This document shows, piece by piece, positions 2,867-53,814 of a stretch of DNA of 64,000 nucleotides. Every line of letters starts with the position of its first letter. Positions within the stretch are counted from its first letter, which is position 1. Source of the stretch: an uncultured bacterium (lineage in GTDB: Bacteria > Omnitrophota > Omnitrophia > Omnitrophales > Aquincolibacteriaceae); NCBI GenBank assembly GCA_964482725.1, contig CAYZYT010000001.1:86318-150317 (forward strand), read 5' to 3'. The notes beneath the pieces are model-generated. The model did no database searches. It was not told the DNA's origin and saw nothing but the letters and a program-made list of their open reading frames with translations. The position numbers and the translations under genes are program-made.

Positions 2867-3277
2867 TTACTCCTCAACCTTTCCCCCGCGCTTCTGCGCT
2901 TCGATCTTCTTGAGAAGACGCCGTTTTGTTTCTTCGTATTTCATTCGTCCAGGTAAGGTCAAATTCCTCCTCAGAAGCCAGTCGGTCTCCTCCATAGCCA
3001 AATAGTAATCACCGTTTTTCTCGTAAAATCTCAACAATGATCCCCTCGCGACCACTTCTGTGTCGTCGTTTTTCGCCATACGAAGAGCTTTTTTATAACA
3101 ATCAAGCGCCTCCTGCTTTTTTCCGCTCAAAGCTAATTGGTCGCCCTCATTTAATAAAGAGTAATATTTTACTAAAAGGCTTTCCGTTGTCTCAGTGGAC
3201 GCTGACACAGCAAAGCCTTCTACAGCAAAAAAAAGAATAAGAAATACGATTGAACTCTTACTATATATTTCCTTCAT
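2867..3277 (-). CDS. TPR-like secreted protein or lipoprotein, translationally coupled to the giant protein
   Basis: 136 aa. N-terminal signal peptide (MKEIYSKSSIVFLILFFAVEGFAVSA) followed by helical TPR-like repeats (ALDCYKKALRMAKNDD..., LLRFYEKNGDYYLAMEE). Its start overlaps the giant gene's stop by 4 nt. Confidence 0.6.
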   Translation of the reverse strand: MKEIYSKSSIVFLILFFAVEGFAVSASTETTESLLVKYYSLLNEGDQLALSGKKQEALDCYKKALRMAKNDDTEVVARGSLLRFYEKNGDYYLAMEETDWLLRRNLTLPGRMKYEETKRRLLKKIEAQKRGGKVEE

Positions 3278-6200
3278 CCTTCTAACCTCGATTCGAATAG
3301 AATGGGATCTATTGAATAAACTTTTCTTGTATCATCGTAGCTAACACCCATCCTTCCGCCATTAAGAAGATCGAAAAGCTGAACGACATTCGATGATGCA
3401 AGGCTTAGCTCTCTCATAAATAAGCTCGTTTTTCGGGCGATCTCACGCTCTTCGGCGCTGCCGTACTCAAAAGAGGAATCATAGCTGAAATCGTCGTGCC
3501 CGGCACCCAGGATTTCGATATTGCACTGATTGGGAAGCGCCGTGACATTCCCATTTTCGTCCACGATCTTAAAATCGCGCTGATCCAGAAGGGGCACTGC
3601 AAGACCGGGCTTCACACCACGCACGCGAACAAGCGTCTCAAGATAAGGATCATCGATAATCGCGTCTCCCACATACGGTCCCTCATAAACGACAAGCGTC
3701 TTGATCCGGGAACGATAGTCGTCCGGCATATGCTCCAACGCTTCGATCATAGGCTGAAAATTCCCCGAATGCGAAAAATGGGTGAACTTCATATTGGGAT
3801 CAAGGCCAAATTCCCGCTGGTTCAATTCGATAAGATCAACATAACTCTTCAATTCCCTTTCGATCTCATCGCGCATAAAATTGCACCCGAACCAGGTATC
3901 GGCCATCCACCGGAACACATTCCCAACGAGCGAGGTCTCTTCATAGAGCGTCACGGGAAGTGAACTCGTTGTAAGTATATTCCCATGCCGGTCACGGGCG
4001 ATGTTCCCGTCCGAATCAAAAAGCACGATGCCCGGAGTGCCCTTTTCCGCCTGGTCTGACTTAAGATCATTGATGAACTCCATGATGAGACCAGGGACAG
4101 CGTCGGGTGATTGATGCGTATTCCAGAATCCATTGCCGAATATAAACGCTACCAGCTGAGCTACGGATTCGGAGGAAAGATTCGTATTAAAATTATAAAA
4201 GAGCGGGTTCAGGTCCTGGAGGTCCGGTGCGATCGAAAAATCAAACGTGAATCGACCGTCTGCCGTCAGATAATGAGAAATCCCAAGATTATAATTGGTG
4301 AACTCAATAGCTCCGGAGGCATTGAACGATAGACGTCCGTATGTTTCCCCCGTCCAATCCCGGAACGAGATCTCCCGAACCAGGCCCTTGGGATCGAGAA
4401 GATCCCGGCGAGTCGTTCCATCAGGCATCCGTTCCTCGACAATCACTTGGATGATCCTTCCCTCCTCATCAACATCCCAACGGATGAGGCGCGGCTTACG
4501 ACCGTTGGAGTATTCCTCATAAATAGCGCGGATCTCAAGCCGTGTCCCTCTGGGGACATAAATAAAATTAATCGTCTTACCGTTCTTCGCCAGCTTCAGC
4601 AGCTTCGCGGACTCGCCCGCATAGATGATATCATCGGCAGAAGGCATTCCCCGCTCGATCCACTGGCTCAAACTCTCCCCGGCGCCCGTAAACTCCTGCA
4701 ACGCTTCCCGCGTAAACAGAGCGATCGCATACTGCTCGAGGCCTTCCGAAAAACCAAGATCTCGGATCGAGCCAAAAAGCTGCGCCAACATGGCCGGATC
4801 CAAAGAATGATAAATCGATTCGTCTACGGATTTGATAAGACTGTCGACAACGCTAAACCGCGTTGGCGAGGCTATGAAATCTCCGAAAAGGCCCGCGACG
4901 ACCCGGCTGGAAAAAGAACCGAGAAGCGAATCATCAAGGCCCCACCGAGCCATCAAAAACTCCGCGCTTACAGAGAGAACACCCCCCAAAGTTTCTCGGC
5001 TCAAAACAGCCTCTTTGATGAAGCCGAAGATCCCGGACGGATTAAAATCGATGGAACCGTTCCCCAGGAAAGCACCGGCAATATTTTCGGTGATGGCGGC
5101 GATCGGGGATCCTAATAATCGCATCAACCGGGGATCGAAGCCCATGGATCGGCTGACGAGTTCGAGACCGCCCAAGGTGAGTTGGGAAGCCATATGGGGA
5201 GCGATCTGGAGAAGACCGGCTTTGAGTGTAAGACTTGGATCAAAAAAAGCGGTTAAGCTCTGCGTGGCAACCAGAGAAAGGAGATTCGCGAACGGCGGGG
5301 CAAGGCCTCTTCTGAGCGCGATTTCGGAAACGCCCTGCATCGCAAGATGTTGAAGCCCTGCGTGCATAAAACTCGATGTGGCACTGCCAAGCCCTAAAAA
5401 TCCACCTCCCACAAAAGCTCCGGCAAGCTGCGTAAGCCTCGAATCCAGGCCCAATCCCTCAAGCCCTTTGGAAACACCGATCGTCAGCCCTGCCGCAACA
5501 AGCTGACGGGCCACATTCTGCGCAAAACTGAATGCATAGCCGGTCGTCACACCCTCCTTGATAATGGCCTGGGCAGGCGCTAACAAAAAATCCTTCACTT
5601 TGATAAGCCCGGACCCGATCGCATTCAATCCGCCTGAAAAACATTCCTTCAGAAAAACAAAGCCATTCTGAAAAAACCGGCCGACATAGGTCACGGAGTC
5701 CCAGAGCATCTTGCTGATATATAGAAAGCCCTGCTTGATCGTCTCAAAAACAGATTGTTGAGCAATACTCGAAAAAACCGCCTGCATCCCTTGAACGATA
5801 AACCCGCCGAGTCCGGCCACGATCCCGAGGATCCCCGCCACAAGCGCCGCATAGCCAAGGATTTTTCCGAATGCCGGGCTAAAGATCGAAACCACCCCAC
5901 TTGCGGCGGTCAACACAAGCGAAGCCACGAAAAAAAAGATGAACCAAAAAGCCCCTCGGATCTCCATAGCCTCCTGGTCCGAAAGTGCTTTCTCGAGAAT
6001 TGCCTGCTCTTCGGAAACCAGCAAAGGCCCGGCATTGTCTTCTGAAACCCAGACCTTGAGGAATTGTTCTTTCGTGATCGTCACCGATTCACCGTCCGTG
6101 CCCTTGCCTGCCTCCCGGTAAGTCACCTCGGCATCCGTCACTTTTTCAAGCATCACAAAATGATCTTCCCCGATATGCGCGATCATTCTCAAAGTGCAGG

Positions 6201-9200
6201 CACCGGCGGAAGACCCGCAAGCGGATCGATACATCGATCGAAGATCCTCGAAAGTGTATTTCCCCGCAGAGAAATTCCGGGCGTGGATCGCCGCCGTCCG
6301 GTCCAAGGCGAACAGGGAGATCAAAAGATCGCCTTCGGAGAATTTATGGATCACGCCCGTCAGAATATCGATCAAGATCGCTTCTTTCGCGATCACGTCC
6401 ATCGACACGTTCACGCCCTTCGAGGCCAACATCGCCTGGAGCGAAAGAAACGCTGACTGGCCAAAGTGAAGATCTCGGCTCCGCAACCATCCGAGGATCT
6501 TTTCCGTATCTTGTCGGGTGAGACTGACCGCTTCGGAAGGATCGAGTTTCAAATTTTGCAATAATTGCGCCCGAACCTCCAGAGACGCTGTCAGATATTC
6601 TTCCAGAAAGCTTTGGACCGCCCCGAGAATGGCCGCTTTTTGAGCCTCGCGCGTCGCCTTTTCCGAAGAATTTTGAAGTTCACTCCTGAGCGTCTCCGTA
6701 TCAAGCCGGCCCGCCGTCTTTGAACGGTTCACCCATTCATCGAATTCCTGCCGGGAGGCATCACGGCCGAGGATCCTTCTGAAAAAGTCCGTGATAATCG
6801 GTTCTATCTCCTGACGCAGAACATCCAGAAGGAACTCCTGTTTTTTTTGTTCCAGCTCCTGCCTTTTTTCGGCAGTCGCCTGTTCGATCTCCGATTTTTT
6901 GGATGCGACCGCGCCCGGGATCTCGGCCAACTGCATTTCACCGACCGCTATAAGTTCGGATCGCTGACCTGCCAAACGATTGATCGCATCCTGGATGCCC
7001 GGGACTTCGAACGTTTCTTCATGGCAGGATTTCCAAAAAACAAAACTACGGCATGTTTTTACATTCCGGAAACGCTGCGCTTGCAAGACTGCGATCTGAG
7101 TTGAGATCTGCCGCGCCCCGGCCTCCACGCTTTCTTTGATCTGCAAACGCGCGGCTTCATCCTGCCCGGCCAGACGATAATATGCGTCAAATTTCGCCTG
7201 CTCGATCTGCTGCTGAAACCTTTGGGATTCGGCTTCAAAATCACTGCGAGCTTTCACAAGCGTGATCTTCTTCAAGACTGCCTCGTTAGAATCCTGGCAT
7301 CCTCCCACCGGGCATTCATATTCATGGACCGCCACAAGATCGCCGACCGTGTTATAAGTCTCCCGGATCTTTCCGAACTCATAATAGGCTTTCATGCCAT
7401 CGATACGGCTCGTATAAATGATCTGCCCTTGAGCATCGTAAACCGTGGTGCTTTGCGTATCCTGAGACACCTTAAGTTTTTGGTAGCGCTCCAAAAATGG
7501 GCTGTAGGCCTCCGGGACCGCCAACGGGATATTCAATAACATCGGGGTATTTAAAAACAGAGGTTTTGTTTCCCCCGAGACAACAACCGTCTCGCTCCTT
7601 TCCTCTACAGTCGAAAAGAAACCCACCCCTGTCTTCTCGCGACCTTGGCCCATACCAAGCCCTTGGGCACCGAAAAAAGTCCATGGGCTGTTCGAGACCG
7701 ACGCCTGACGGATCTGCGCGGCACCCAACCCTTCCAAAAGCGTCAAGATTTCGTTACCGGCTTGTGAAAAGGAGCCGTCGGAAACCGCCATCGCGACCGC
7801 TTCGCCGGGTTTGATCCCTAAAAGAAAATTCTTGATCCTTGCGCGATCTCCGGACGATCCAAAACTTCCGGCGCAAAGATCCCACTGGTTCATCCCCGCC
7901 TTATAGACAGCAAACAAAAACCCGTTCCCCTCATGTTGGGCAATCTCTTGACCGCTCTCATCAAAAAGTTTCTGCGTTGTATCCGAAACAAGTTTCACTT
8001 CTTTTGGGAATGGAACTCCGTTGAACGCGATTTGGGACCGCTCGAAATGCGTATAGCCCGTCACGAGGCCAAGCGCATCCAAGACATACGAAAAAGTGTG
8101 CGTAACCCCGCTCGCGGATTCCGTCTTTGTGAGACGACCTGCGGTGTCATAGCTAAAAAACCATTCGCCGATCTTCAGTCGGATGCCGGTCCATCGATCC
8201 ATCTCGTCTTGTAAAAGCTCGTAAGTTTCCGCTTCAGGAAGAGCAATGGTGAAAAGCTGTCCATCCGGAAAACGCCCCCGGACCGGCACAGAGCGCTCGA
8301 TCTCCAGGATCAATCCGTCCGGAAACTGGATCTGCCCACTCAGGATATTCTGGTCGGAATCGAACGAAAGATTGACTCCATGCCCCCCGCCGGCAAGGGT
8401 CACCTCGCCGGTCCCATCCCTTTTGAAATCAAAAAGAACCTGCGACCCGTCCTGAGCCTCATACCCGATCAGATTCACCGCGCGCAATCCTGTCGCAGAG
8501 AAAAGTCTGGCAGGAAGGTCCTCTTCCGAAAAGCTCGCCTCCGGACCAGGCGCTTGTGTGTAGTCGGAATATTCATACAAGAAACCGTCCTTCGTAAGAT
8601 GCTTGATCAAGTCCCCATTTGAATCATAGAACCATGTCGTTCCTCGCTCATCCGTCACTTGTGTTCCGTCCCCAACAAAAGCATATTGCGTGCTGTTGAG
8701 GGCACGGCTGTTATAGGTCATTTGAGCGCCGATCAATTTCCCGTTCTCGTAGCTATAGCGCGTCTGAAGTTGATCCGGATCGGTCGCCGAAAGAAGTTTC
8801 CCGTCCTTGAACCGGCGTTCTTCTCCGCTTAGCCCATCCTTAAAAACGGTGATCTCTTGGCCGTCTGCATCAAATTCATAAAATAAAAGATATTCGCGAC
8901 CATCCGTCTGGATGATCTTTTGGAGGGCGCCATAGTGATAGTTGATCGTCCCCCCCGTAGACGTTTCACCAGGCGCCCCGATCGTTCCCTGCGACGAGTT
9001 GCCCGACACGGCATACTCGTGAACGGTTCCATCCGGCAAGGTCATGCGACTGACATTTTGTCCCCGAAGCTCCACCTGCGTTCCGTCGAGACGTTTAAAA
9101 TTAACAAGCTCACCGTCCCCCTCAAGGACATTTTGATAGTTCAAAACGGTGGGAATATCCAACAGCTCGGCCAGCGGCGGATAAACAACCGGAGTTTTTG

Positions 9201-12200
9201 AAGCAATGGCGGCCCCGACAGAAGTCAGCTGCATGAATTCGATCCGGAGACTCTTGAGTTTGCTAGCGAGAATCCCGGCAGGGCCTTCCCACAGAGGGTG
9301 ATCCATTTTTTTTAAAGCCAGGTAGGAAATATCCTTGATATAAAAAGCACCTGTTTTCCCCACTCCCGAAGACTGGCGAAAAACTTCGATCGTTACTTCC
9401 GCCTCCACCCCGGCCTTGTAAACCAATGGAAAATCGAATGTCTGGTAATCACTTCGGGTAGCGTCCACCTGAAAAGAATAAAGGGTAGACTGCTCGGAGG
9501 TCTTGAGTGTTAGTTGCAAAGTCTGGTTCCAATCCATCGAGGGATCTTTTTTGATCGTAAGAGTTAAAAAATCATAGTTTTCAATATTGACGGGAGTTGC
9601 GACATGCCGTGCAGACATTCCCAAAACGGGGCCGTTCAGATCCTGATAGTTGAATTGATAGCGCGCCAATGCGCCATCCCCAAAATCCCCCTCCACGGCC
9701 TGGGTAAGCTCACCGGGAGGAAGAGTTCCGGCACTAAAACCGACCACCGCATCCGCTCTTTCGAGCACATTGACAGGCGGTTCTTCCAAAATATGTGTTT
9801 TTTCGATCACGCGATCCGGCCGCTGCAGATACTCCGAAAGCTTCATGTATCGAGAGACGGTCTTCGAAGTCCCTGTTTGAGGATCCGGGACGGTTTCGAA
9901 AAAGCGAGCAAACGCGTTCGTGACCCTGCCCCCGGTAGGATCCAGATAATACGAGAAATAGGTGATCCCGTTCTGCGGGGTTTCAATGGCCTCTATGAGA
10001 TCCTTAGAATAAAAGACTTTTACGCCGCCTCCGACATCGGTCCCTTGCGATCCTGTCTGATCAATATCAAACCCGCCCCCTCCGACAAGCGCCACATGGG
10101 CCTTCGCGAGGTTCCCGTCATCGGCAAAAACAATGTCCGTCAGAGTGGCTGTGTCGGTTTGAATGGCATGGATTTGGCCTTGCTCAAAATCAACAACATA
10201 GCCGTCCTCCACAAGAGTTGTGAGTTGACCGCTCGCATCAAAGATCTTTTTACAGTCATTATCCTGGACGACAAAAGAACGGATCTCGCCCCGAAAACTC
10301 TGGTCGTAATAGAACCGTCCCGTTTCTAGTTTTCCGCGGGCCAGATCGATCACGAATGTCGCAAGCCCATTTTCAAAAAGGACCGTCCGACCGTTCCGGA
10401 ACACCCATTTCACGAGTTGTCCCTTTTGAAAATACTGGATCCCCCCGTCCGCCCGTCTGAGGACTCCCTGCACCAGCTTTCCATCCGAATCGACCGTAAA
10501 ATTCTCGAGAGTCTCCTTCTGCGCATAACCGCTTTCATAGCTGGCCTGATCGATAATCTTCTGCTGGATCAACGCACGGATCTCGGTTTCCGTCCTCCCG
10601 AGCAAAAGCTCCCATTGAATTTCATTTGAAGTTCTGACTTTCAAAGCTGAAAGTGGCCCCAGGAACAGATCGCCCGCGATAGGATTGCCGTCAAGGGGCT
10701 GGATCGAGATGGCCAGCTGGCTCATGGCGCCGGCAGGTTTCGGGATCGGAATGGAAATATACTGCCAGTCATAGGACAACGCACCCGTCAGGAAAACCTC
10801 GCCCATTCCCTTGAATTCGAATTTCAACCGAACATTTTCGGGCGTCCCGGGCGACAGCTTGACCGGGACAGAAAGAAAATCATATCCGGAAAGATCGAAT
10901 CCCGGGTAATTCGCCCAGATTCCCACGGGCTTCCCTGCCGACCGAAAATCAAAACTCAGATGCCTTACCTCCCCAAGACTGAGATCCATGGCGAGCATGC
11001 TCATCAAATGCCCCGACCCCGGCGTATAGAAAACTCCCTGGGACGAAGCTCGGTTTAAAATATCGCGTTGCAACCCGCCCAAAAGCGCGGTCGCGGAACC
11101 CGCGTGTTTTGGAGAAAGGCAATATTCCTGCAAATTGATCCTCCGGAGATTCTCTCCTTCCCCAAACTCGATCTCAACGTGATGGAATTTTCCACTCGGG
11201 GTCAAATAATTGAACACGCGCCCTGCTCCCCATTCCGGATCCACCAGCACAGGGACAAAAGCCTGTTGCTTGATGAGCCCCGCAGAAAGTCCATCCGGCA
11301 TGGCACTCGACCCGTCATAAAGCGGGGTCACAGTCTCGCCAAAATCAGGAGGCGGCAAGTTCGTTCGAATCGCAGGATTTAATTTGAAACTCAATCCTTG
11401 ATAAAGGGCATCAAAAGAGGATCGGACACCTGTCCGTCCCAGATATTTTTGAAAATAATTCCGGCTTGTATTCAGAAGGGAAAGAATAAAAGACGCCTGA
11501 TCCACACCGTAATACTGGTCGGAATAGACGGGGACCGTACTCATCACGGTTTCTCCGGTCTGGGGATCCTCCCGGGAAACTTTCCGGAGCTGGATCGCAT
11601 CAACAAAACCCGCGCCGGTCCGCATCTCCGGAAAATGAGACTCCATGTTTTTCAAAAATTGGAGTGTATAATGCGGCGCCAACGGAAAAGCGGCCGCGGT
11701 CCCATAAACAGACCCAGTATCCGTCCTTAAGAGATCGTCCGTTTCTGCAGCTCCGGGCAATCCTATCTTCCCCTGATAACCCTGCAACGGCACATCGCCG
11801 GCCGAAAGAAGACCCGGGATCCCCTGCGTGTTGACATATTCCGCTTGAGCGTAGAGAAAATTCCTCAGAGCGACTTCAAATTCCGGATATTGTGTTTCGT
11901 CCGCATGGATAAGCGGCCAGAACATCTGAAAGGCACCTCCGTCATAGGGCGTCGCCACATCGATCGTATCCCCGCTTTGAGTCTTAAAGGGACGGATCGC
12001 TATGTCCAGGTTCTTTAACGCGTCCTGGTATTGCGGATATTTTGCCGCAAGCCAGATCATTCCAGTCCTGAATTCGTTAAAAACACGGTCAATGTAATAA
12101 TTATTGATGAAATTCCATTGCCTTGTCCCCGCATCGAGGCCATACGCCCCGTGAAAACGTTTTTTACCAGGATCATAAAAAGCTGCATAGCCGGGTTCCT

Positions 12201-25138: not shown

Positions 25139-25153
25139 GGTCCTTATACCTTT

Positions 25154-25185
25154 CAATTTCATTAAAGATGAAATTGGGGCTGTTC
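25154..25185. promoter_or_regulatory. Conserved palindromic element, copy 2 (CAATTTCA-N7-TGAAATTG-GGGCTGTTC). It overlaps the promoter and leader of the sigma/anti-sigma operon.
   Basis: Direct reading: caatttca ttaaaga tgaaattg gggctgttc. It lies 16-47 nt upstream of the sigma factor's start at 25138. Confidence 0.6.
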
Positions 25186-25390
25186 TTGTCGACCGTAAAG
25201 GAAATAAAACGGAAGACGAGGATAGTTTGTTACCTCAACCCCCGACGACTTAGACCGCAGCCTCTGGGGTTTAGTTCCCCTCGCAGAGGACTTTTTCGAT
25301 CGCTGCCCATTCTAAGCTAAATTATTTTTTCCCCTCATTTTTTTTCGCATGTTAAACTTTGCTTCTTTTTTGAAAAGGGAATGGATCTCT

Positions 25391-43760: not shown

Positions 43761-44609
43761 TCACGACTTCTCCGGAAAGTTTTCGGCATATTCTTTAGCG
43801 GGCTCGACCAACTCTCCGCCCTTGTAAACTCCCTCTCTCTTCAATTTTCCGCTTTCATAATACCACCGAACCGTTCCCTCCAGCTTTCCGTTCTTCAAGG
43901 CTCCCTCACTTTTCAACTTTCCATTCTCTTCGTACCACTTCACCGTCCCCTCCGGCTCTCCGTTCTTCAAAACTCCCTCGCTTTTCACCGTTCCACTTTC
44001 ATAATAATTTCTAAACGGCCCCTCGAGCTTTCCCTCTTTATAGAAGGTCCCGTTTTTCAACTTTCCGTTCTCGTAATAAATCTTAAACGGTCCTTCGATC
44101 TTCCCGTCCTTGTAAAAAGCTTCCTCGTGAAGGCGTCCGCTCTCGTCATACCGAAGAACCTTTCCGTCAAGCTCTCCGCTCTTTAAAGCTCCCTCACGTT
44201 GTAGCTTTCCGTTCTTGTAATAACTCTTAAACGGCCCCGCAGGCTCACCGTTCTGATAAAATTCTTCCTTCTTGAGTGATCCTTCTTCGTAATACCACTT
44301 CACCCACCCCTCAAGCTTTCCGTTCTTTAACTCTCCTTCACTGTCAAAAACCCCGTTTTTGTCATACCACTTAACCAACCCCTCAGGCTCTCCGTTCTTT
44401 AAAGCACCTTCACGCTGTAATTTTCCGTTTTCATAGTAGTTCCTAAACGGGCCTTCAAGCTTTTTGTTTTTGTAAAATGCCTCGAGTCTGAGCTTCCCGC
44501 TTTTGTAATATTCCCGGACGAGTTCCGCCCCGTATCCGGTCGAACTTAATGCGGTCATTGAAATCACGAAGATTCCGATGAGCCCGCTGATGAAGACTCC
44601 TGCTTTCAT
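43761..44609 (-). CDS. Secreted MORN-variant (YwqK-like) repeat protein
   Basis: Signal peptide, then about 11 tandem 23-aa repeats of the form YYENGKLQREGALKNGEPEGLVKWYDKNG, which is the MORN_2/YwqK-type repeat. Confidence 0.65.
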   Translation of the reverse strand: MKAGVFISGLIGIFVISMTALSSTGYGAELVREYYKSGKLRLEAFYKNKKLEGPFRNYYENGKLQREGALKNGEPEGLVKWYDKNGVFDSEGELKNGKLEGWVKWYYEEGSLKKEEFYQNGEPAGPFKSYYKNGKLQREGALKSGELDGKVLRYDESGRLHEEAFYKDGKIEGPFKIYYENGKLKNGTFYKEGKLEGPFRNYYESGTVKSEGVLKNGEPEGTVKWYEENGKLKSEGALKNGKLEGTVRWYYESGKLKREGVYKGGELVEPAKEYAENFPEKS

Positions 44610-51983: not shown

Positions 51984-52802
51984 TTAATAAAAAAAACCAA
52001 TGCGCGCTTCCATCTTGAATTCATAGGTCGTATAGAATTGGGCCAGTTCCCCGCTGTGGTACATCGGAAATCCGAGCTCCACCGAGAAAACGGCCTTTTG
52101 GGGAATGGTTTTTCCGATCGCGATGTCGAACGGCACGAAGACGGCACCCTTGTCCTGGAAATTGATCTGAAGATCGGGCGAAGGAAATGCGGTGATGAAC
52201 CAGTGACGCGGGAGCATCCAGTTCACCATGGGCGCCATTTCGAGCGTGCTGATGTGACTCCTCTTGGAAGAGCCCGCATAGTCGCCAGCATACCGCATGA
52301 GGAAAGCTGCAAAGCTTCCGTTGCTTATTCCGGGAAGCGACCTGCGAACGCCCAGGGTGGGCACGATCTGGTATTTCCCGTCGCCCATCTGATCGGTACC
52401 TGCCGTCGGAAAAACGAACTGGGTGCCGGCCGCAGCCGCCCATTGGTCGTTAAATTTCCTAGCCAGAAGTATCTGAGCGAGAATATCTCCCAACCCGAAC
52501 CGAAGCGCTCCGTTCGGCTCATCCGCGGTCACCTTATTGGTAAGGTCAGAAGGAAGATCGACGCGAAGCCCGATCCCCCAGAAATCGTTCATCACGATCG
52601 GATAGTCAGAGCGGAGAGTAAAGATATTCTTGGAGCGTCCTTCTTTCAGAAGCTGATACTGGTAACGAGCGTCGACGCGGGAGAGCGGGCGTGTGATGTC
52701 CTGACCATTGTTGATCTGCCGGTTCCCGCCGACTTCTGCGGCAAAAGCGGCGGCGGAAAGGACCAAGCTAAGAAGCGCTAGAAGAAGGGTTCTTTTGAGC
52801 AT
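51984..52802 (-). CDS. Outer-membrane beta-barrel protein (transporter-like family)
   Basis: Signal peptide (MLKRTLLLALLSLVLSAAAFA). Beta-strand periodicity. An aromatic C-terminus (...ARIGFFY). Confidence 0.55.
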   Translation of the reverse strand: MLKRTLLLALLSLVLSAAAFAAEVGGNRQINNGQDITRPLSRVDARYQYQLLKEGRSKNIFTLRSDYPIVMNDFWGIGLRVDLPSDLTNKVTADEPNGALRFGLGDILAQILLARKFNDQWAAAAGTQFVFPTAGTDQMGDGKYQIVPTLGVRRSLPGISNGSFAAFLMRYAGDYAGSSKRSHISTLEMAPMVNWMLPRHWFITAFPSPDLQINFQDKGAVFVPFDIAIGKTIPQKAVFSVELGFPMYHSGELAQFYTTYEFKMEARIGFFY

Positions 52803-52913
52803 ATCTTATGGTCGAAATTATACCGTAAAAAAAATAATCGCCTAAAGAAAATACGCTCTAAAAAAGCGCACCAACGGCAAATCGCCCTCTTTGATTTTAG
52901 TCCCAATTCTTAT

Positions 52914-52945
52914 CAATTTCAGAGCGTCTGAAATTGGGGCAATCC
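52914..52945. promoter_or_regulatory. Conserved palindromic element, copy 3 (CAATTTCA-N7-TGAAATTG-GGGCAATCC), in a divergent intergenic region
   Basis: Direct reading: caatttca gagcgtc tgaaattg gggcaatcc. Locally it is the extended palindrome AATTTCAGA-gcg-TCTGAAATT. Confidence 0.6.
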
Positions 52946-53020
52946 CTGTCTCCATTTAATAAAAAAATAAGACAGGGATAGGGCTATCTGCCGATACAAT
53001 ATCCATAGGCGGTCGTTCAG

Positions 53021-53166
53021 AGCTCAAGACTTATGGGGCGGGAACATCAAAAGAAAAGGCTTGCCCCGTTAGAGTCTTAAACCACTCAAAGCGGGAGTTG
53101 AAAAAATAAAAGTTGATCTTAATCAGAAATTTCAGATAACAGCTCAAGACTCTAACGGGGGAACAC
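53021..53166 (+). promoter_or_regulatory. Structured 5' leader of gene 53167..53523. A 15-bp perfect inverted repeat sequesters the RBS, and an upstream near-copy offers an alternative pairing. Candidate riboregulator or attenuator.
   Basis: CCCCGTTAGAGTCTT at 53064..53078 is exactly complementary to AAGACTCTAACGGGG at 53146..53160, and the latter overlaps the GGGGGA RBS. A direct repeat of the right arm (AGCTCAAGACTTATGGGGCGGGAACA at 53021..53046) lies upstream and can also pair imperfectly with the middle arm. Confidence 0.45.
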
Positions 53167-53523
53167 ATGAAAAAATATCTTCTGGCGTTTGGGGTGGTTG
53201 CATTGGCCTTGATAAGCTTGGTCTCTACATCGCGGGCCGCCGAGGACAACGCTTTCACAAAATTCGGACGCGGCATGGCCAACATCGTGATCTCCCCCGG
53301 AGAGCTTTACACACAACCGCTATTGCTTTCGAAAAATAACGATGCCCCTGTCGCCATTTTCGGAGGACTACTCAAAGGAACAGCGATATTTCTCGCCCGG
53401 GAAGGGGTGGGAATCTATGAAGTGCTCACGTTCCCCTTTCCGATGCCAAAGGGATACCGGCCGATCATTGAGCCCGCCACAACCTTCACGGATTGGGATA
53501 CCCGCAAGCCCCAGAACGGATAG
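53167..53523 (+). CDS. Small secreted protein. It resembles the exosortase-associated TIGR04073 family.
   Basis: Signal peptide (MKKYLLAFGVVALALISLVSTSRA). The motifs FTKFGRGMANIVISPGELY and GIYEVLTFPFPMPKGY match my recollection of this small-protein family. The family assignment is tentative. Confidence 0.45.
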   Translation: MKKYLLAFGVVALALISLVSTSRAAEDNAFTKFGRGMANIVISPGELYTQPLLLSKNNDAPVAIFGGLLKGTAIFLAREGVGIYEVLTFPFPMPKGYRPIIEPATTFTDWDTRKPQNG

Positions 53524-53814
53524 CGAACATCAAACGCACCCATCAAGTGCTTAGGCTGGGATAATTCCTGATATGATTAGGAGGCCCTGAGAAACCGGCT
53601 ATACTGCCTTTCTCAAAGGGGGTGATTCCATTGGGTAATAAGAGCAATTCGACCAGAGAGAAAAAAAAGAAAAAAGGCGCCTTCAAAGGCAAAAAGAAAT
53701 AAAGCTACAAAAGTGGCGGTTATTCAAACGACCCGCTTGAAAAAGAAATGATAAATTTGGGCTGTCCCTGGATGGCCGCCACTTGAACCCTACCCGAGAA
53801 AGCGCCCTCCCTCT

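Follow-up and report, generated by a model that had tools for sequence, protein, structure and literature searches.

In the 64,000-nt stretch of DNA analysed here (contig CAYZYT010000001.1 of an uncultured Omnitrophota bacterium; the whole stretch is called the window), the 5' leader of a small gene of the TIGR04073 family is interrupted by an insertion of ~100 nt, designated InsB, that ends in terminal inverted repeats. InsB is absent from all of the more distant orthologues of the gene, its right end supplies the Shine-Dalgarno sequence of the gene, and a stem of 15-18 bp encloses that Shine-Dalgarno sequence. On balance, the leader is better explained by a mobile-element-like insertion that probably damps translation than by an ancient riboswitch, and the behaviour of InsB is that of a small, non-autonomous mobile element (a miniature inverted-repeat transposable element, or MITE) or of a laterally exchanged cassette. 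The features of the leader and gene to which this reading refers are as follows.

53049..53059, + strand: AAAAGAAAAGG, the ancestral Shine-Dalgarno region, stranded ~105 nt 5' of the ATG
53060..53165, + strand: InsB, the lineage-specific insertion of ~100 nt, with boundaries uncertain by ~5 nt
53064..53078, + strand: left terminal inverted repeat of InsB, which is the left arm of the sequestering stem (H2) and the complement of 53146-53160
53079..53128, + strand: interior of InsB, A-rich and changing at about the neutral rate
53146..53160, + strand: right terminal inverted repeat of InsB, which is the right arm of H2 and holds most of the new Shine-Dalgarno sequence
53157..53161, + strand: GGGGG, the present Shine-Dalgarno sequence, 5 nt 5' of the ATG at 53167 and donated by the end of InsB
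53167..53523, + strand: the TIGR04073-family gene (NCBIfam TIGR04073), encoding 118 aa with an N-terminal signal-peptide-like segment

The gene product matches the NCBIfam model TIGR04073 (exosortase-system-associated) with 73.2 bits against a cut-off of 50, over profile positions 4-74 of 75, and has 68 close homologues, mostly from Candidatus Omnitrophota; a literature search returned nothing on TIGR04073 and nothing relevant on repeats of Omnitrophota. Orthologous loci (numbered with the prefix L) were gathered from metagenomes, metagenome-assembled genomes and assemblies, the 260-300 nt 5' of each start codon were read, and ~20 distinct orthologous leaders were aligned with the window. Protein identity to the window gene is 91% for L004/L091, 90% for L003/L083 and 79% for L092-L094.

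Orthologues at <=81% protein identity have one layout, consisting of a conserved promoter and a leader of ~60 nt that ends ...GGGAACATCAAAAGAAAAGG-N6-8-ATG, and the Shine-Dalgarno sequence AAAGAAAAGG is common to 14 orthologous Omnitrophota leaders. The sequence GCCGATACAAT, nearly invariant in all orthologues, lies 59-70 nt 5' of the ATG in the insertion-free ones, and AAAAGAAAAGG of the window aligns with the Shine-Dalgarno sequence of all insertion-free orthologues, where it is 6-9 nt 5' of the ATG. InsB sits between this ancestral Shine-Dalgarno region and the start codon, and the alignment of the ~20 orthologous leaders has its gap exactly there; deletion of 53060-53160 from the window restores ...AAAAGAAAAGGGAACACATG, matching L009 (...AAAAGAAAGGGAAACAACATG). 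Among these aligned leaders, InsB is carried only by the window (with identical copies in L001/L002), L004/L091 and L003/L083, and is absent from L005-L018, L084-L089 and L092-L094.

The two arms of InsB, CCCCGTTAGAGTCTT at 53064-53078 and AAGACTCTAACGGGG at 53146-53160, are exact reverse complements by direct reading of the sequence, and a repeat search extends the inverted repeat to 18 nt at 94% identity with one mismatch (53061-53078 and 53146-53163). The chance expectation is ~0.012 perfect 15-bp inverted repeats within 200 nt per 64 kb, and the whole window contains just 10 local inverted repeats of at least 13 nt. An earlier note, made from the letters of the window, had claimed that this 15-bp perfect complementarity buries the ribosome-binding site of the gene at 53167 and had called for the leader to be folded; the minimum free energy fold of 53010-53180 bears the claim out, using the H2 stem (-46.4 kcal/mol, z = -3.9, 0 of 200 shuffles equally stable) and pairing the Shine-Dalgarno bases 53157-53160, with further pairs up to 53166, one base 5' of the ATG. 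The cost of opening the initiation region in the sequestering form is 10.4-13.9 kcal/mol in the three InsB-bearing leaders, compared with 0.4-5.9 kcal/mol in the seven insertion-free orthologues tested, and the mean unpaired probability of positions -13 to -4 is 0.15-0.32 in InsB-bearing leaders versus 0.58-0.90 in insertion-free leaders. As read from its sequence, H2 has no U-tract and is therefore not a terminator. Sequestration of the ribosome-binding site as a general theme of TIGR04073 leaders was considered and rejected, the high opening costs of a few distant paralogues being due to generic structure at 59-71% G+C and not to a hairpin analogous to H2.

The copies of InsB are less diverged than the sequences in which they lie. 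The window and L003 copies of InsB differ at 8 of 101 aligned sites, compared with 44 of 112 in the flanks (23/59 fourfold sites plus 21/53 positions of the 5' leader; p = 6e-8), and divergence drops within ~2 nt of the left inverted repeat. Because the interior is unconstrained, as described below, the low divergence of InsB means that the ancestor of the window and L003 copies is much more recent than that of their flanks. The host leader of L003 keeps the ancestral sequence, yet its InsB carries the window-type form of an 11-mer, AGCTCAAGACT, and L003 thus received InsB from a window-like source, perhaps by transposition or by short-tract recombination. Presence and absence of InsB and of a second insertion at the same locus (InsA, below) occur in all four combinations across lineages. 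These patterns suggest that InsB may have spread laterally between lineages in recent times.

In several respects InsB conforms to what defines a MITE: it is small (~100 nt, where the limit is about 500 bp) and non-coding, with a reading frame that is not conserved; it has terminal inverted repeats, perfect over 15 bp; and its presence is polymorphic (three lineages with it, more than 15 without) at an age younger than its flanks. The Correia elements of Neisseria (CREE), ERIC, RUP and MITEAba12 are likewise non-coding sequences of ~100-150 nt with terminal inverted repeats; Correia elements and bacterial MITEs are also found in 5' untranslated regions, with a presence that varies between close relatives, and their repeats pair in mRNA to form a long hairpin that alters the adjacent gene, an effect that in the case of InsB is predicted (PMC2649163, PMC10969869, PMC2229807). 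InsB differs from them in having no sequence similarity to any of the four, in having been seen in one copy so far, in lacking any recognisable duplication of its target site (TA in the case of Correia elements), and in lying between a Shine-Dalgarno sequence and its start codon, with the replacement Shine-Dalgarno sequence coming from its own terminal repeat. In prokaryotes, a MITE family may be represented by just one copy in a genome (PMC10969869). With a single copy of InsB seen, its membership of such a family is unproven.

The leader upstream of InsB contains a near-copy of the right end of the insertion (53021-53046 versus 53141-53165; local alignment score 26, maximum 25 in 1000 shuffles), with which it has the 11-mer AGCTCAAGACT in identical form. 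This direct repeat provides one strand of a second hairpin, H1.

53026..53042, + strand: 5' strand of H1, the hairpin that competes with H2 ('anti-sequester'); it falls within the direct repeat 53021-53046 and pairs with 53060-53078

H1 is predicted to have 17 pairs and a 2-nt bulge (-23.0 kcal/mol folded alone), in keeping with the suggestion of the earlier note that a near-duplicate of the arm with the ribosome-binding site at 53021..53046 could compete for the left arm. By folding, H1 and H2 are mutually exclusive and near in energy in the window sequence: for the leader alone the H2 form has -46.4 kcal/mol versus -40.4 kcal/mol with H1 forced (6 kcal/mol favouring H2), and for the leader plus 32 nt of coding sequence the order flips, the H1 form having -52.6 and the H2 form -48.7 kcal/mol. 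A segment of the InsB interior (53081-53092, CCACTCAAAGCG) has its complement early in the coding sequence (53185-53197, CGTTTGGGGTGG), and this pairing, which is probably fortuitous, is what tips the minimum free energy fold to the H1 conformer when the 32 nt are added. In folds of the nascent leader, H1 has -24.8 kcal/mol in the window and -14.3 kcal/mol in L091, and is not formed in L003; 7 of its 17 pairs are disrupted in one or more relatives, with no compensatory changes in the three-sequence alignment. Across these three sequences H1 is absent (L003), weak (L091) or strong (window), and this may be read as a gradient, which is suggestive.

The earlier note had likened this arrangement to riboswitches and attenuators, and with those platforms the leader does have in common a helix over the Shine-Dalgarno sequence and a mutually exclusive upstream helix that uses the same partner strand. 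It departs from them in having no conserved aptamer, no covariation and no Rfam match, in being absent from orthologues, and in that even the three carriers fail to conserve the competing helix. The H2 stem of the three carriers has 15 invariant pairs out of 17 and no compensatory ones; the other two are broken in L003, where the left arm has an uncompensated C.A at 53075. The 14 insertion-free leaders yield 0 consensus pairs and no consensus secondary structure, and the covariation among orthologous leaders by which the earlier note would have had the structure judged is consequently nowhere found, both arms being missing from every orthologue at <=81% identity. The window and L091 differ at 9 of the 50 positions of the InsB interior (53079-53128) and at 8 of 59 fourfold sites; since the interior differs at least at the fourfold-site rate, there is no aptamer-like constraint in it. 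Scans against Rfam, of the whole window at gathering thresholds and of 52780-53300 at E-values up to 10, gave sub-threshold noise only (microRNA models, and the HtrA thermometer at 16.6 bits versus 52). Of what would be expected of a riboswitch, therefore, the sequestering helix is present, whereas neither a conserved sensor (the interior being about neutral and the upstream reading frame, described below, unconserved) nor conserved and covarying alternative helices were found.

A genuine two-state riboregulator, in which the leader changes from H1 (Shine-Dalgarno sequence free) to H2 (sequestered) or back in response to a ligand, protein, small RNA or temperature, would account for the mutual exclusivity of two helices that lie 4-6 kcal/mol apart in the window, for H1 being the first to form on the nascent RNA, for a window-specific T to G change at 53036 that repairs a mismatch in H1, and for the arms being unchanged between the window and L091. 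It is very unlikely all the same: besides the lack of the structure in more distant orthologues, of H1 in L003, of compensatory pairs in either helix and of an Rfam match, the sole candidate aptamer region evolves neutrally, and a perfect 15-bp stem is too stable for a thermometer.

In the favoured reading, InsB would have entered the leader of the TIGR04073-family gene in a small clade of Candidatus Omnitrophota, between AAAAGAAAAGG and the start codon. The conserved promoter of the gene is CTCTTTGATTTT...ATCTGCCGATACAAT, i.e. TTGATT-N17-TACAAT, and was called by a promoter scan in L009 and L003. Its hexamers in the window, and the insertion InsA that falls exactly between them, are the following.

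52891..52896, + strand: TTGATT, the conserved -35 hexamer, displaced ~80 nt from the -10 hexamer by InsA and contiguous with it in orthologues
52901..52978, + strand: InsA, an insertion of 78 nt with a copy of a duplicated TAG on either side (52898-52900 and 52979-52981)
52995..53000, + strand: TACAAT, the conserved -10 hexamer, with a predicted transcription start near 53007

Transcription from this promoter, starting near 53007, would place both arms of InsB in the mRNA. At equilibrium H2 would lower the access of ribosomes, which, to judge from the predicted folds, would amount to constitutive damping of translation; alternatively, the H2 duplex may be a double-stranded target of RNase III, as in Correia-type elements. 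In the window lineage, the 5' leader would then have become complementary to the left arm, permitting a 17-bp H1 to form first in the course of transcription. Because H1 is close in energy to H2 and forms first, the block is probably partly relieved in this lineage, with H1 acting as a fixed suppressor and not as a sensor.

Several observations weigh against the insertion reading or complicate it. A comparison of the window with L091 shows 0 changes in the 57 positions that make up the arms, 3' part and junction of InsB (p = 7e-4 versus the interior), and so there is some constraint on the arms and 3' part, which the Shine-Dalgarno sequence explains on the right side and not necessarily in the left arm; for the left arm alone, the lack of change in 15 nt is not significant (P = 0.11), and the right arm is identical across all three InsB-bearing lineages. 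Searches of the 64-kb window, of ~0.45 Mb of related loci and of IMG/VR, which covered a small fraction of each carrier genome, turned up no further copy of InsB. No matching pair of terminal repeats occurs elsewhere in the window; the arm with up to 3 mismatches gave chance-level single matches in the window inside a giant open reading frame only; a 10-mer search of 90 related loci and a blastn-short search of the window and those loci returned the orthologous InsB site as the sole match; and an arm of 14 specified bases had 93 single, unpaired matches in IMG/VR, as expected by chance. The junctions, GG-CTTG|CCCC ... GGGG|GAACAC, have at most a decayed GGAAC-like duplication of 5-7 nt, with left junctions that differ among the three carriers, so that no clear target-site duplication is legible. 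The direct repeat of the right end with the host leader, significant over 27 nt, fits an origin by local duplication or template switching, or gene conversion, as well as it fits transposition, and occupation of the same site despite flanks that are 39% diverged would require either site-specific insertion or short-tract recombination. The main caveat is that InsA has moved the -35 hexamer away from the -10 hexamer in the window and L091, which makes the real start site uncertain.

The direct repeat also bears on the possibility, unlikely but to be taken seriously, that InsB arose once, by local rearrangement of the leader (its duplication in both inverted and direct orientation, e.g. by template switching), and later spread to L003 by homologous recombination. 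The left arm is the inverse of the directly repeated sequence, InsB is single-copy in everything searched, and the four-gamete pattern of InsA and InsB shows that recombination has occurred in the region. Such an origin leaves ~55 nt of the interior with no local source; the host leader of L003 lacks the 11-mer that its InsB contains, the boundary of low divergence coincides with the terminus of the inverted repeat, and the neighbouring insertions come from a clearly dispersed family. Tandem duplication of a unit of ~120 nt was rejected, because the coding sequence, which would have to hold the second copy, is unlike the rest of the putative unit. It is doubtful, too, that InsB is a portable translational cassette, i.e. 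a single- or low-copy MITE-like element with a Shine-Dalgarno sequence in its terminal repeat, moving laterally to the same site and followed by an anti-sequester evolved by the host; if it were, the locus would capture the birth of a two-state riboregulator from the insertion of a transposable element.

Other explanations assign the inverted repeats a different role or none. As in the leaders of E. coli adhE and phage lambda N, which are activated by RNase III, the ribosome site of the gene at 53167 is buried in a long-range duplex of the 5' leader; here the duplex, known from sequence and predicted folds, was created by a recent insertion. The inverted repeats may accordingly be a substrate of RNase III, cleavage of the stem removing the 5' leader and either freeing the ribosome site or destabilising the mRNA. 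The inverted repeats of Correia elements in mRNA are cut by this enzyme (PMC10969869, PMC2649163), and the stem of InsB offers 15 perfect pairs plus 2-3 flanking pairs; a stem of 15-18 bp is at the short end for RNase III, however, and H1 may pre-empt it in the window, and this account is improbable. Scarcely more promising is an imported promoter from which transcription would start inside InsB, offsetting the disruption of the native promoter by InsA and making the hairpin irrelevant, with a left arm that is never in the mRNA. Correia elements do create promoters (PMC2649163), TTGATC (53113-53118) is conserved in all three copies of InsB and loosely resembles the native -35 hexamer, with GATAAC 16 nt downstream, and the native hexamers are separated by InsA in the window and L091; but a consensus scan finds no sigma-70-like site inside InsB in either the window or L003, the final T is missing from every candidate -10 hexamer, InsB and the native promoter show no significant similarity (local alignment supports the 27-nt repeat only), and L003 has InsB together with an intact upstream promoter. 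A short upstream reading frame gives rise to the last explanation.

53033..53080, + strand: an upstream reading frame of 15 codons extending over the left arm, unconserved and with no Shine-Dalgarno sequence before its ATG

Ribosomes translating this frame, which covers the whole left arm and terminates at the final base of that arm (in L091 a longer frame, of 23 codons, likewise spans it), could melt the arm and free the main Shine-Dalgarno sequence, coupling the gene to upstream translation. That they do so is most improbable, given that no ribosome-binding sequence precedes the ATG of the frame, that the frame has 2 codons in L003 and several orthologues and has lost its ATG in others, and that the peptide is not conserved.

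Insertion InsA contains what the earlier note had called copy 3 of a conserved palindromic element (ATTTCA-N7-TGAAATTGGGGC, 52914-52940; three copies in the window), and the leader is indeed directly 3' of it. The note had gone on to propose layered control of the small protein; the upstream element is there, and is more aptly regarded as another small insertion, which interrupts a conserved promoter. InsA has a second hairpin, TCCCTGTCT / AGACAGGGA, and is found in the window, L004/L091 and L092-L094, and not in L003, L005 or any other orthologue. About 8 of its 78 positions differ between the window and L092 by hand count, versus 19 of 51 fourfold sites, and it has been kept at one site in the window, L091 and L092 though synonymous sites differ by ~37%. 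An A-rich tract within it (52955-52969) might be UP-element-like. The promoter spacer and -10 region (ATCTGCCGATACAAT, notably GCCGATA; 52986-53000 in the window and 2405-2433 in L009) are nearly invariant down to 60% protein identity, even with a different upstream gene; this conservation exceeds what a plain sigma-70 spacer needs, and the region may contain an operator or an alternative-sigma -10 element.

InsA belongs to a dispersed repeat family of ~85-90 nt, identified by nhmmer with E-values of 1e-19 to 3e-21, of which the following copies were found.

16638-16727, 25140-25225 and 52899-52982: full copies in the window (nhmmer)
53718-53765: partial copy in the window (nhmmer)
L003 2894-2979, L008 4736-4819 and L092 2331-2414: copies in relatives (nhmmer), those of L003 and L008 being at other sites

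The layout of the family is (C)TGTCC..ATAC, hairpin 1 (TCAATTTCA-N5-7-TGAAATTGG), GGGC, and hairpin 2, which has an A-rich loop of ~24 nt (e.g. GTCCAAAC...GTTTGGAC or TCCCTGTCT...AGACAGGGA). RNAalifold on six copies of the family gives two hairpins with 19 pairs, of which 6 have compensatory changes. The copies are usually intergenic and beside gene starts. The scan of the window against Rfam had no match to the family, and the palindromic-element pattern had one match in IMG/VR, coincidental and inside a coding region. The family could be a MITE-like or REP-like (repetitive extragenic palindromic) element or a structured RNA. Like InsB, the InsA type is small, non-coding, intergenic in the same locus, variable between lineages and much less diverged than its flanks; it differs in having two local hairpins and being demonstrably multi-copy, where InsB has one long-range terminal stem and a different sequence, and is not shown to be multi-copy.

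A third small insertion, of ~56 nt, is present within 900 bp. In L003, a perfect and compact hairpin (AAGTGGCGTCTATCC-TCGC-GGATAGACGCCACTT, 3083-3117) lies on the 3' side of the gene, and in the window (53710-53783) the same stem (AAGTGGCGG...CCGCCACTT) encloses the ~56 nt that are absent from the compact hairpin of L003. This insert weakly matches the half of the repeat family that contains hairpin 2 (nhmmer E = 0.039; 73% identity to 16668-16718). Together, InsA, InsB and the insert in 53710-53783 indicate that the locus is a hotspot for small insertions.

Elsewhere in the window, the divergent gene upstream of the promoter (51984-52802, minus strand, 272 aa) has no match in Pfam or NCBIfam, and has a conserved TATAAT ~15 nt 5' of its ATG with no Shine-Dalgarno sequence (52803-52850, minus strand), which suggests that its mRNA may be very short or leaderless. 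The giant open reading frame (3274-16608, minus strand) encodes ~4,440-4,470 aa, with a likely GTG start at 16608 behind the Shine-Dalgarno sequence GAGGGGGA, and a copy of the repeat family is ~40 nt upstream of this likely start. At 43773-44413 there are five copies of a 137-nt sequence, 60-70% identical, whose starts are spaced by multiples of 72 nt (72, 144 or 216); they overlap an open reading frame on the minus strand (43761-44609), which suggests that it may encode a repeat-containing protein.

The structure in the TIGR04073 leader is real, ordinary in kind and of modest interest. Convincing thermodynamics of sequestration and anti-sequestration can be a by-product of the recent insertion of a palindromic sequence, revealed only by comparison with orthologues, which is a caution for structure-based screens for riboswitches. 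For the little-studied phylum Omnitrophota, the locus is an example in which small inverted-repeat insertions remodel a single conserved gene at two points, InsA at the promoter and InsB at the translation-initiation region, and in which InsB itself donates the replacement ribosome-binding site. If the complementarity of the upstream leader to the left arm is compensatory, it would represent an early step in the origin of a regulatory RNA structure from mobile DNA.

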